Positions 41,501 to 44,919 of a stretch of 64,000 nucleotides of DNA are shown one piece after another. Positions within the stretch are counted from its first letter, which is position 1. Each line of letters begins with the position of its first letter. The notes below the pieces were generated by a model. It was not told the DNA's origin, did not search any database, and saw only the letters and a program-made list of their open reading frames with translations. The DNA lies in contig CM102286.1 of assembly GCA_046563655.1 (NCBI GenBank), positions 12,586,001 through 12,650,000 of the forward strand, read 5' to 3'. This DNA is from Yuukianura sp. NJ FZ-2021. Its lineage: Eukaryota. The translations under genes were made by a program, and so were the position numbers.

Positions 41501-43823
41501 TCCAAGTGAATTCTTTGCAATTACACTTTCCAGTATTCCACGACCCAATTCTTCCTAAGGTTTTCACTTTAACTTTTGCGTTGTTATTCGCCTTCCAGGA
41601 AGTTCGTCCAGAAAAGCATAAAGTTAAGGACAAGCAGCGTTTTCTTATCGGTGTTGGACATGAGTCATTTTCACTTTCTCCTTAAAAAGCTGACGAGATG
41701 AGGAAAGTTTGAATGGAGAGATACAGAAAAAAGAAAAACGGAAGCTGGTTTGCTTCCCAGCGTTCAAGCGATTCCATCTGAACAGGATAGTGTCATATCC
41801 CAGAGATTTCCTGAACTTTGGGAGGGTGCTACGGGGCAAAACAGGAAGTAGAGCTTGAGCGAAAGGACAAACCATTCCAGTGCAATTCCATTAAGGAAAG
41901 AACGAACTCCGTTTTTGGCTGGATCATTTCCTTCAAGTACTAACGTTGTCTGAGGCGGGAGTGCTCATTGACATGAATCCCCCATTCTCTTTTTTCCCGC
42001 CCTTACTTTCTCCAAGTACTTCTTCACTCCAATCTTACATCCAGATCCTAACAGAGATCTTATGATTTGCAGTAAGACCATTTCAAAGGAAGATGCGAGG
42101 GAGAACGTTCGAATCGTCCATGTTTCCGGATTTCACCCTCTACGTTTTTTTACTGGCCTGACTGCCTGTGTTTTTGTTTATTCAATCTTACCCAACTCAA
42201 CTCGTAAAACAGCAAATAATGCTTCATACTAAAAAGATGTCCAACAAAACCAAAACAAGATTTCGATTCAAAACTGTTGACACATAAACTCCATTTGTCT
42301 TGTATGTATCTCCCTTGAAACCTCTCCAAAATTAGCAGCAAACGCCAAATCATCACAAACCAAAGATTTCCACTTTGTTGAAAACAACGCTACGATGAAA
42401 ACATCGAAGAAGTTGCAAAATATAAAACCTCCAAAAGGATTTAAAAGTACAGGCTATGATTAGCACGCAAATTACTAAAAGCATTTTGGGACAGACCGAC
42501 ACACACCGAAGGAAAAGAGGTTGGTCGTTTTCCAACTTGTGACTTCTGTAAGTTGAAGTTTTCTTCTGCTATTTAGGGAAAGAAAATACGTTTAGTAATA
42601 ATCATTTCTTTAAACTAACTTAAGTAAAACCTATCCCAAGTCAAAGTAAAGTCCAACTTATTTCCATCATTAGAATTTCATACTTCCAGCTGTGCATTAC
42701 AGCGTCATCTAAACAAAAGTAGAGATGAGGGTGCATGTCGCCAAAATGAACTTTTAAGCTTTATTACTCAACGGCAGCTTTCTTCATTCCTTTCTCCTAA
42801 AAGACGACTTTCTCTTTCCCGACCTATTGTTTTCCCCGTCTTAACTGAATTTCCACATCTTTTGAATATGAGGCAGTAGAGTAAACCGCAACTAATGGCC
42901 ACCGAACCCTTTCCTTTTCTTGCCTAATGCTCCTGCACAGGAAGTTAACATTACAACTTGGCATAGAGCCCTACTGCCTTGATTACTAAACAGGAGTAAA
43001 ACATTGGGTCTTGACAGCTTGCGAAATCCATCTCAAAAACTTTCTCGAAACGGCTCTGCTCATTTCGAATTCCAGGCGCCAAACCGAAATTCGCAAAACG
43101 TTTTACCACATAAAGACGTTTCCCGTTAATTAACTTCTACGCTTTTCGCTACTTTTGGAATATAAAAAAAATCAAGTGTGTTTAACCGTAGAAATTATTC
43201 AGAGCAGAGCCCAATCATTACTGAACTGCAAGTTGAATGGAGTTTTAAATTTACGACTAAAACTCCGATTCCAAAATTAAGTTGTCCCAGAGTTAAAGTG
43301 TCCTGCAGACAAACAGGCAGACGGACTCGGGAAAGAACATAAAGTAACAAACTAACTTTCTCTACTTAATAATAAATAATGAAACGAAGTCACTACTGTA
43401 ATGTGGTAACTTTGAAATAATCCAAAACCAAACAAACGCCAATTCCTTAAACTTATTTTGCACAGTCTTTGGACTGGCTTCGAGTTGCCAGAGACTCATA
43501 AAGTCCATATAAAATAATAATTTGCTTATACACAGCTTAACGTTAAGTAAATTGTGCCCACTCTTACGTTTTACTCAAAAACAATTGACAATTATTAGTA
43601 TGAACGTAATTCATTGGAAAAAACTACGACATAAGTTACAAACACACTTCTAATACCAATTTAGAACCCATTTAAAAGACATTTGCTTCAATCAAAAATA
43701 TCTTTACGACTAATTAACTCTAAACTCTCTAGATTAAAAATGAGCAATATAGCTTGCCTAAAACTGAGCAAAAGCCATTACTATAACAAAAAGATAAGTT
43801 CATTGCAACTTTTAAGTGAAAAG

Positions 43824-43954
43824 GTAAAAACTTTTTTCTTTTAACTATTTTCAAAATTGTTTTTAAAAATAGTATTTGTCAAATTCCAAACACTGAAAAT
43901 CAAACTTTCAGATTAGAGGAAGGTTGTGCCCGTAATTTTTTTTCTTGAATTCAG
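43824..43954 (+). other. Candidate 5'-UTR intron (131 nt) of the AetD-like gene
   Basis: AAG|GTAAAA donor at 43824 and TTTTTTTTCTTGAATTCAG| acceptor ending 43954, 20 nt before the ATG. Confidence 0.45.
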
Positions 43955-43974
43955 TTACTACATTTTCTGGCAAC

Positions 43975-44822
43975 ATGAACCGCGTCCTACATTTCATTGA
44001 GAAACAAGCTGAAATAGCATCAAACCATGAATTCATCCTTTGGTTAAAAAACGCCGAAGAAAGTCCACAACAAAAGTTGAAAGCGTTCATTCCCGGCATA
44101 ATTTACTTTGCATTTGGATTTCGTGATTGGATTGTCCACAGTGTCAGAGTAATTCGCAATTGACTCTCCCTTTTAAAACTTTTGTTGAAAGAGTGATTTC
44201 AACAAAAGCAGAGTACGAATGGAACTTTTTATTTATTTTTTTTTTGTTTAAGTATCCATCAGAAGATGCCAAAGCTGATGAATTAAAAGCAGCCATCAAT
44301 GAACACTGCATGGAAGACAGCAATCACTGGCCATGGCTACTCCAGGACATCAAAACTCTAGAATCCAATGGCCTGCTAAACTGGACAACTGCCCTTAAAT
44401 TTTTGTTTGGGCGTGCAAACGAAAGCCAACGAATTGGTCACTACGATTTGATCAAACTAACCGAAAGAACTACCGACCCCGTCCATCGCTACTGCCTCAT
44501 TTCTGCTTTCGAAAGCATCAGTCACAAACTTTTCTCAACTTTAACAGACTTGAGCAACCAATTCGAAGCGGAAACTGGGGAAAAATTGTTATACTTGGGA
44601 CAAACACATCTGGATAGAGAAGAAGGTCACCTCGAATGTAATCCCACGGAATCCGAATTGGAACAAATGATTTGGAAAAGAGACATTCCGGAAGATCAGG
44701 TCAATGAAATTTTGGAAATTGTCCAAAACGTAGCTCATATAATGAACAACTTATGGACTGGTTGTCTTCAGCTCGCAAAAGACTCTGATAAATTCGCAAA
44801 ACTTAGTAACTCAATGGAATGA
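43975..44822 (+). CDS. AetD-like heme-oxygenase-like diiron oxidase (HDO superfamily), 247 aa; join(43975..44148,44253..44822)
   Basis: ATG at 43975, donor AGA|GTAATT at 44149, acceptor TTTATTTTTTTTTTGTTTAAG|TAT at 44252, TGA at 44820-44822. The spliced protein reads MNRVLHFIEKQ...FAFGFRDWIVHSVR/YPSED...INEHCMEDSNHWPWLLQDIKTL...ALKFLF...ISAFES...LLYLGQTHLDREEGH. It aligns end to end with AetD as recalled (FALNFRD; INIHTQEDAKHWEWFLNDL; ALRFVW; IEAMET; YLYVADSHVEVETGH). Putative ligands are D80, H83, E145, H177, E181, H184. Confidence 0.9.
44149..44252 (+). other. 104-nt phase-0 spliceosomal intron of the AetD-like gene
   Basis: GT...AG with a long T tract before the AG. Its length is not a multiple of 3, which explains why the two halves appear as separate ORFs (43945..44163 and 44127..44822) in different frames. 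Confidence 0.85.
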
Positions 44823-44913: not shown

Positions 44914-44919
44914 AATAAA
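44914..44919 (+). promoter_or_regulatory. Polyadenylation signal AATAAA of the AetD-like gene
   Basis: AATAAA about 90 nt downstream of the stop codon, followed by T-rich sequence. Confidence 0.55.

Follow-up and report, generated by a model that had tools for sequence, protein, structure and literature searches.

A single-intron gene in eukaryote-type DNA encodes a predicted diiron oxidase of the AetD/SktA branch

A spliced gene in eukaryote-type DNA

The window analysed here is a stretch of 64,000 nucleotides (nt) from Yuukianura sp. NJ FZ-2021 (assembly GCA_046563655.1, contig CM102286.1, positions 12,586,001 to 12,650,000 of the forward strand). A preliminary description, made from the sequence alone, had noticed in it a spliced gene for a protein resembling AetD, the nitrile synthase of aetokthonotoxin biosynthesis in Aetokthonos hydrillicola. 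The locus is an intact single-intron gene in eukaryote-type DNA. By its sequence and predicted fold, the encoded protein is a member of the AetD/SktA branch of haem-oxygenase-like diiron oxidases, with a putative ligand set of three histidines and three carboxylates. The parts of the gene are as follows.

43975..44148, plus strand: exon 1, 58 codons opening with the ATG at 43975; M1-R58, auxiliary helices at the N terminus, which contain F45 and F49 (relatives aligned from Met 1; AetD register from a profile alignment)
44149..44252, plus strand: intron, 104 nt, GT..AG (GTAATT...TTTAAG), 27.9% GC (gapless junction in relatives; 74 nt in organism B, below)
44253..44822, plus strand: exon 2, 189 codons plus the stop codon TGA (44820-44822); Y59-E247, predicted core helices 1-3 with all six putative metal ligands (sequence matches and predicted fold)

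The spliced product has 247 amino acids (aa). A T-rich tract precedes the AG of the intron, whose GC content compares with 40.9% in the exons and 38.7% in the 10 kb flanks. Read through without splicing, the frame of exon 1 meets a TGA four codons into the intron; since 104 is also not a multiple of three, splicing is needed for the protein reading. The longest stop-free frame of the window contains exon 2 and extends over 231 aa, compared with a maximum of 221 aa in 40 composition-matched simulated sequences.

The splice junction is supported by homology, because relatives align across the boundary between the two exons without a gap. The nearest relative, P0003, and many other full-length relatives begin their match to exon 1 at their own Met 1 and that to exon 2 at residue ~59-62. 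For P0003, the exon 1 match has an E-value of 2e-10 and exon 2 is 42% identical in the alignment (43% by BLASTP), and the same seven residues lie between the conserved FKD/FRD and YP motifs. We also found the stretch in contigs of two public runs, which come from two studies and two organisms. In organism B (run X4, record 11), an 802-nt contig matches 43972-44152 and 44257-44411 but has only 74 nt, not 104, separating the two blocks, which indicates an intron at the same place but of different length. With these coordinates, the colinear intronless relatives and the same-site intron of organism B, the intact spliced protein of the preliminary description was confirmed.

The intron and the features of the flanks place the gene physically within eukaryotic-type DNA. 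Open reading frames (ORFs) of at least 100 aa cover 4.4% of the window, as against 66-100% of most named bacterial loci. None of 433 other ORFs of the window had a Pfam match; these comprised 138 stop-to-stop ORFs of at least 75 aa from the whole window, 145 of 50-74 aa from 30.5-56.6 kb and 150 of 50-74 aa from 0.4-30.5 kb (of the 379 ORFs of 50-74 aa, 42 at 56.5-64 kb, five overlapping the gene and 37 of low entropy were left out). This agrees with the original statement that no halogenase or other aet gene lies in the window. Rfam gave no match in the window either at gathering scores or at E<=0.1, and neither a tRNA nor a second copy of the gene was found there. The window has almost no internal repeats, apart from eight small tandem repeats; its GC content is 39% and its observed/expected ratio of CpG is 0.74. 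Translating the window with other genetic codes revealed no hidden long genes beyond the effect of fewer stop codons. On the other hand, the 138 ORFs of at least 75 aa exceed the 107.6 +/- 10.6 seen in simulations, so some unrecognised coding sequence is possible.

These observations bear directly on whether the gene could be a bacterial contaminant or the product of a chimeric assembly. The otherwise mainly bacterial membership of the family would fit such an origin. Nevertheless, we regard it as very improbable: the GT..AG intron breaks the frame, so that in its present form the gene could not be expressed by bacteria; the same intron position recurs in a second organism from a second study; AT-rich non-coding flanks extend over tens of kilobases; and run contigs (records 10, 11 and 14) bridge the edges of the gene into its flanks.

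Family, predicted fold and putative active site

We compared the protein with proteins of known structure at the level of sequence and of predicted fold. Exon 2 alone, searched against the PDB with phmmer, matched AetD with an E-value of 4e-12 over AetD residues 58-216 and nothing else of note. A profile built from the 16 nearest relatives matched AetD over its full length (E 1e-51, AetD 1-233), while no other haem-oxygenase-like dimetal oxidase in the PDB was reached by this profile at E<=1. The protein matched no family model of Pfam or NCBIfam, even with the threshold relaxed to E<=10. AetD (8ji2-8ji7, 8twn/8twt/8tww) is thus the only solved relative by sequence. It has ~239 aa compared with 247 aa here and is colinear with the window protein, but the two are only ~22-25% identical. 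The placement of AetD within the haem-oxygenase-like superfamily is taken from the AetD literature, as described in PMC11611611.

An AlphaFold2 model of exon 2 (residues 59-247), built with 100 aligned relatives, was all-helical, with a mean predicted local distance difference test (pLDDT) score of 91.3 and a predicted template modelling (pTM) score of 0.85. In Foldseek, all 21 matches at E<=0.001 were AetD chains, with a template modelling (TM) score of 0.76-0.80 normalised to the query and a root-mean-square deviation of 1.6-2.5 A over ~169 columns; the next match had an E-value of 0.59. Among 48,161 representative chains compared by VIA-align, AetD was the best match by a wide margin (Z 15.2, 2.2 A over 168 residues), followed by HamA, UndA, BesC, TenA homologues, RohS, HrmI and CADD at Z 8.1-8.7, and lower still by PolF, FlcD, SznF and haem oxygenases. 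For helical bundles, a Z-score under ~13 in this comparison may reflect no more than a common arrangement of helices, and AetD lies above this value and all others lie below it. UndA, BesC, HamA, RohS, HrmI, SznF, CADD and TenA accordingly share the helical-bundle fold (Z 7.1-8.7, haem oxygenases ~6); none of them shows sequence similarity to the window protein at E<=1, and they act on other substrates.

The residues expected to bind iron were then assigned from the exon 2 and profile alignments (the index of chain 8ji2_A is the native number plus 10, with Met 1 at index 11). In AetD, Fe1 is bound by H79, H172 and E176, and Fe2 by D76, E140, E176 and H179, as described in PMC11611611 and PMC10654658. 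The candidate active-site features of the window protein are the following.

44304..44348, plus strand: core helix 1 motif H76-xx-E79-D80-xx-H83-W84-x-W86-xxx-D90; D80 aligns with AetD D76 (Fe2) and H83 with AetD H79 (Fe1)
44511..44513, plus strand: codon of E145, core helix 2; aligns with AetD E140 (Fe2 ligand)
44592..44630, plus strand: core helix 3 motif Y172-xxxx-H177-xxx-E181-xx-H184; aligns with AetD Y167, H172, E176 and H179
Y172 (alignment): equivalent of AetD Y167, putative contact to the substrate carboxylate
H177 (alignment): equivalent of AetD H172, putative Fe1 ligand
E181 (alignment): equivalent of AetD E176, putative bridge between Fe1 and Fe2
H184 (alignment): equivalent of AetD H179, putative Fe2 ligand
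F45 (profile alignment): equivalent of AetD F44, putative indole clamp (role described in PMC11611611)
F49 (profile alignment): equivalent of AetD F48, a Phe replacing a Glu ligand, which would leave Fe1 open to the substrate amine and carboxylate (role described in PMC11611611)

All six putative ligands therefore align with those of AetD, and the equivalents of F44, F48 and Y167 are kept as well. In 100 relatives, the conservation of these columns was high: D80 is Asp in 87 and Glu in 11, H83 is kept in 98, E145 in 97, H177 in 99, E181 is Glu in 92 and Asp in six, H184 is kept in 88, and Y172 is Tyr in 80 and Phe in 19. The F49 column is nearly invariantly Phe among the aligned relatives. As far as the alignments can tell, the protein lacks the fourth carboxylate on auxiliary helix 2, having F49 in its place as AetD has its Phe, which is the mark of substrate-triggered enzymes. 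The protein had been described at the outset as an AetD-like haem-oxygenase-like diiron oxidase with HxxED, central Glu and Y-xxxx-H-xxx-E-xx-H motifs and six ligands in the register of AetD. Each of these points held: the motifs are present as described, sequence and predicted fold agree on the family, and the exon 2 model matches AetD first and other oxidases of the superfamily next.

Two smaller observations concern core helix 3. The pLDDT of the model dips to 72-80 after H184, which coincides with the flexible end of this helix in AetD as described in PMC11611611. Separately, six of the 16 nearest relatives (P0004, P0007, P0008, P0009, P0014 and P0015) do not have the final His of the H184 column, so part of the clade may bind metal differently.

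Around the predicted tryptophan pocket, the agreement with AetD is partial. F45 and Y172 are kept and AetD I146 is replaced conservatively by L151; by contrast, S214, which contacts the 7-bromine in AetD, corresponds to M222, and M139 and A142 correspond to F144 and I147. The second characterised member of the branch is SktA, the skatole synthase of Nostoc punctiforme, which forms 5-bromoskatole, cyanide and bicarbonate (described in PMC11869266). We compared it from published descriptions: it belongs to the same AetD-related family and has the same predicted ligand set and a tryptophan-type substrate. A 2026 mini-review (PMC13108848) describes positions 139 (M/T), 142 (A/T) and 214 (S/F) as set apart between AetD and SktA; where SktA has T139, T142 and F214, the window protein has Phe, Ile and Met.

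Relatives, ancestry and host

A profile search of 1.84 billion representative proteins recovered 454 relatives at E<=0.001, 265 of them at E<=1e-10, and none was more than 43% identical to the window protein; word-index protein searches returned few relatives. We looked up the sources of 30 of the best 150 of the 454 relatives. Twenty-four had no informative name and were mostly singletons from metagenomes or run assemblies, four were named only "hypothetical protein", and two were proteins of uncultured genomes labelled Planctomycetota and Pseudomonadota; no named animal protein was among the 30. The 30 also included an Archangium protein with a tryptophan dimethylallyltransferase fusion (see below) and P0017, a EukProt transcriptome protein of the amoebozoan Vermistella antarctica. 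The nearest relatives are metagenome proteins at 40-43% identity, two of them on eukaryote-like contigs.

Those two contigs (L001 and L002) are short and come from one metagenome, and the gene is intronless in both. Their ORF cover is 0.40 and 0.56, whereas most of the named bacterial loci reach 0.66-1.0, with 0.49 for one short contig, and their GC content is 44-45% in the coding sequence versus 36-37% outside the gene. On L002, a 160-aa EF-hand protein is encoded on the opposite strand, whose only matches are two metagenome proteins. No Shine-Dalgarno-like sequence precedes the ATG on either contig, and the flanks of the window show no similarity to either. We regard these contigs as eukaryote-like, not proven eukaryotic.

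To find bacterial members, a single genome of each prokaryote species was scanned with sequence patterns, which gave 25 loci with labels including Planctomycetota, Acidobacteriota, Actinomycetota, Bacteroidota, Cyanobacteria and Pseudomonadota. Few bacteria carry the family: among 401 genomes sampled from the phylum of genome G001, a match at E<=1e-10 occurred in one, which was G001 itself. Two sets of patterns found no relative in viral contigs. The nearest named bacterial relatives are 33-37% identical to exon 2. In four of the five nearest named bacterial loci (L005, L006, L008 and L009, not L007), the gene is immediately followed, in the same orientation, by one for a flavin-dependent tryptophan halogenase (PF04820). 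These four pairs come from uncultured Acidobacteriota and Planctomycetota, and the pairing mirrors the aet and skt clusters. They differ from the window gene in being bacterial, intronless, dense and operon-like, with the predicted halogenase gene next to the oxidase gene.

The neighbourhoods of the family hold further recurring features. Upstream of the oxidase-halogenase pair, L005 and L006 carry genes for an ECF sigma factor and a Ser/Thr kinase, and L008 and L009 for a Ser/Thr kinase only; the kinase has TPR repeats in L006 and L009 but not in L005 or L008, which makes for a recurring regulatory neighbourhood. In a cyanobacterial genome bin (L012, 8482-10092), the AetD-like gene is followed by one for an FAD_binding_4/cytokinin dehydrogenase-like protein and not by a halogenase gene. 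Many other members, P0020-P0027 and further ones of 500-545 aa, are about double in length with two profile matches each, as tandem-duplicated two-domain oxidases. The Archangium proteins P0101, P0165 and P0166 combine a tryptophan dimethylallyltransferase with an AetD-like domain at the C terminus (residues 359-589), which suggests a prenyl-tryptophan-processing pathway in myxobacteria.

Two trees were computed, both unrooted and with most rows near the window lacking a taxon. The first had 83 rows and a quick method; it did not include 35 proteins with lengths outside 170-350 aa, the hits beyond rank ~75 or one locus that was a duplicate. In this tree, the window sequence fell in a seven-row clade of unlabelled sequences with a support of 96 in the Shimodaira-Hasegawa-like approximate likelihood-ratio test (SH-aLRT), inside a 32-row clade (100) with rows from Acidobacteriota, Planctomycetota and Actinomycetota. 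For the second tree, 40 rows were picked after the first and a careful method was used. The window clade then comprised six rows (the window, L001, L002, P0005, P0006 and P0007; support 98/96) inside a 27-row clade (100/99) with an unresolved backbone, which includes genomes of Acidobacteriota, Planctomycetota and Actinomycetota and also the four oxidase-halogenase loci. Cyanobacterial, Bacteroidota and Pseudomonadota rows lay outside the 27-row clade, and the AetD-like cyanobacterial sequences (L012) are in a different clade from the window gene; every row of the outer clades that has a name is bacterial, although most rows there are unlabelled. The window clade has branches of ~0.6-0.9 changes per site and 40-43% identity between its members, so it is probably old. 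A tree forcing the window clade and the Vermistella pair together was not rejected by the approximately unbiased (AU) test (p 0.244), for a group that had been chosen after the tree was seen.

Overall, the gene most likely descends from bacteria, with a direction and an age of transfer that we infer. A transfer into an animal is plausible. However, two of the closest relatives lie on eukaryote-like contigs and an amoebozoan transcriptome contains one member, so we consider it equally likely that the gene has long been more widespread among microbial eukaryotes and that it was transferred recently into one animal. The initial proposal of an enzyme acquired horizontally by an animal therefore stands with regard to the intron and eukaryote-like flanks and, as the most likely reading, to bacterial ancestry, whereas a recent transfer into one animal is no likelier than the wider, older presence. 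Of the relatives with names, almost all are bacterial, as had been stated, but the closest are metagenome proteins and one is from an amoebozoan. Likewise, AetD was the top match in the PDB as had been expected, but the closest proteins overall are metagenome proteins and neither AetD nor named bacterial enzymes.

We needed to weigh carefully in which kind of organism the gene resides. A substantial possibility, somewhat short of even, is that it belongs to a microbial eukaryote (an amoeba, a ciliate or similar), either because the whole window does or because an associate was assembled together with an animal. Nothing specific to animals was recognised in the window by the Pfam, Rfam and tRNA searches described above. 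The Vermistella antarctica transcriptome member, the short environmental contigs of the two nearest relatives with DNA (with their ORF cover of 0.40 and 0.56, EF-hand gene and lack of a Shine-Dalgarno sequence), and the 30 looked-up relatives without a named animal protein point in the same direction. By contrast, a 64-kb stretch in which just one gene is recognisable, with 39% GC and a CpG ratio of 0.74, would probably be unusual for most small protist genomes, and read depth is even along the 2 kb around the gene.

A related question is whether the family is simply old in eukaryotes, through vertical inheritance or one ancient transfer, instead of having passed recently from a bacterium to an animal. 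The long branches and low identities of the window clade would be expected in that case, and the AU test leaves room for joining this clade with the Vermistella pair. We nonetheless think it rather unlikely, since the named members are overwhelmingly bacterial and spread over six phyla, no named protein from a eukaryotic genome appeared among the 30 looked-up relatives of the best 150 of 454, and a match in a transcriptome can be bacterial carry-over.

Proposed chemistry and other features of the locus

Returning to bacterial ancestry as the most likely origin, we consider it likely that the window holds an intact diiron oxidase of the AetD/SktA branch, derived from bacteria and now a eukaryotic gene, which acts on a tryptophan-type amino acid. 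The substrate is most likely tryptophan or a ring-substituted tryptophan, by analogy with AetD; both substrate and expression are points that we infer. AetD and SktA act on bromotryptophans and also accept tryptophan (for SktA, described in PMC11869266). In the mechanism we propose, two Fe(II) would be loosely bound by D80, H83, E145, H177, E181 and H184, while the auxiliary helix would carry F49 where oxidases that are not substrate-triggered have a Glu ligand. Because a Phe takes the place of this ligand, an L-amino acid, most probably tryptophan or a ring-substituted tryptophan, would complete the Fe1 site through its amine and carboxylate. Its binding would trigger activation of O2 to a peroxo-diferric species, and the 2-aminopropionate side chain would then be cleaved or rearranged to give an indole derivative (a nitrile, 3-methylindole or another) and small C1 products. 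The gene would have come from bacteria, where its closest relatives with names form units of two genes together with one for a flavin-dependent tryptophan halogenase.

Several observations weigh against this reading. The tree lacks a root, and a taxon is missing for the majority of the rows close to the window. At AetD positions 139, 142 and 214, the window residues F144, I147 and M222 match neither AetD nor SktA. No halogenase lies in the window, although a neighbouring halogenase characterises the aet and skt clusters and not the enzyme family; AetD has its aet neighbours and no intron, and SktA is encoded beside a brominase, whereas the window gene stands alone. In organism B, exon divergence (~2-5% between the organisms) is not clearly below flank divergence (~4%), and a change of F49 to Leu falls in a nearly invariant column. 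The estimate of selection, finally, comes from few differences: among those listed in the exons, six are synonymous and seven non-synonymous over 146 and 595 sites, so that the ratio of non-synonymous to synonymous differences per site (pN/pS) of ~0.29 is computed from 13 differences out of a longer set, on organism B contigs of low depth (~5 to 9).

The exon pieces of organism B are gapless, while its flank pieces have 11-31 gapped positions. Together with the pN/pS ratio, this weakly suggests purifying selection on the coding sequence. We also used these data to ask whether the gene could be a decaying relic, or its product a protein without catalysis. The F49L change and the seven non-synonymous differences of 13 listed could be read in this way, as could the lack of a partner gene nearby and an insertion/deletion difference directly upstream of the ATG. 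Still, this explanation is improbable: the frame of 247 codons is intact, the six ligands and the nearly invariant residues of the family are kept, the exon pieces of organism B are gapless with a pN/pS of ~0.29 (from a partial list), and F49L was read from an error-prone contig of depth under 5.

The pocket residues raise a different question, namely whether an active diiron oxidase could have a non-tryptophan substrate, for example a different aromatic amino acid or an aliphatic one. Neither AetD nor SktA shares the residues F144, I147, L151 and M222, crystals of AetD also bind Phe and Tyr (8zvh and 8zvg), and no halogenase lies nearby. On the other hand, F45, F49 and Y172, equivalent to the residues that clamp or stack the indole and contact the carboxylate, are kept; the nearest named bacterial relatives pair with tryptophan halogenases; and a fusion with a tryptophan prenyltransferase exists within the family. 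We therefore judge a non-tryptophan substrate to be somewhat unlikely.

A one-step oxidative cleavage or rearrangement of tryptophan of the AetD type, giving a nitrile with AetD or skatole and cyanide with SktA, has so far been described from bacteria. The homologues of AetD are described in PMC11869266 as mostly cyanobacterial and all of unknown function, in a network dominated by cyanobacteria. In the 2026 mini-review of the superfamily (PMC13108848), neither "eukaryot" nor "animal" occurs. A literature search on AetD and horizontal gene transfer found nothing, and among the matches listed for AetD or SktA and eukaryotes no title or abstract dealt with eukaryotic homologues, a search that did not extend to the supplementary material of the papers on AetD and SktA. 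A copy that carries an intron and lies in eukaryotic DNA, together with relatives on eukaryote-like contigs, would extend AetD-type chemistry to eukaryotes, and the window gene is a concrete candidate for expression and assay. If the host is an animal, it would add another case of animals gaining specialised metabolism from bacteria. A bolder proposal, to which we give a minor chance, is that an animal or another large-genome eukaryote adopted from bacteria a diiron oxidase that cleaves tryptophan, maintains it in the form of a spliced nuclear gene and uses it, without a P450, to make an indole nitrile, or skatole with free cyanide, for defence or signalling, as part of a previously unseen eukaryotic branch of AetD enzymes.

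The sequence around the gene holds two further features.

43685..43971, no strand: insertion/deletion difference of 287 nt in the 5' flank just before the ATG (joint 43684>43972 in contigs of X1, depth 76.5, and X4)
44914..44919, plus strand: possible polyadenylation signal AATAAA, 92 nt past the stop codon

Run X1 carries both forms of the 287-nt upstream stretch, the short form at a depth of 76.5, which would fit a difference between haplotypes or between species. In the same run, an 807-nt contig (record 5), whose depth is ~1/20 of the main one, matches 176 nt of exon 2 (44550-44725) at just 82% identity and then joins ~43455 with 13 other letters between; it may stem from a second copy that has diverged or from a relative present in that sample.

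Globally, the window also has a marked strand asymmetry. Its composition is A 20698, T 18312, C 14239 and G 10751, and on the plus strand C exceeds G and A exceeds T in all 32 bins of 2 kb, with a GC skew of -0.04 to -0.25 and an AT skew of +0.002 to +0.15. Such a skew might arise if the gene were nested in a single, very long transcription unit of the minus strand.

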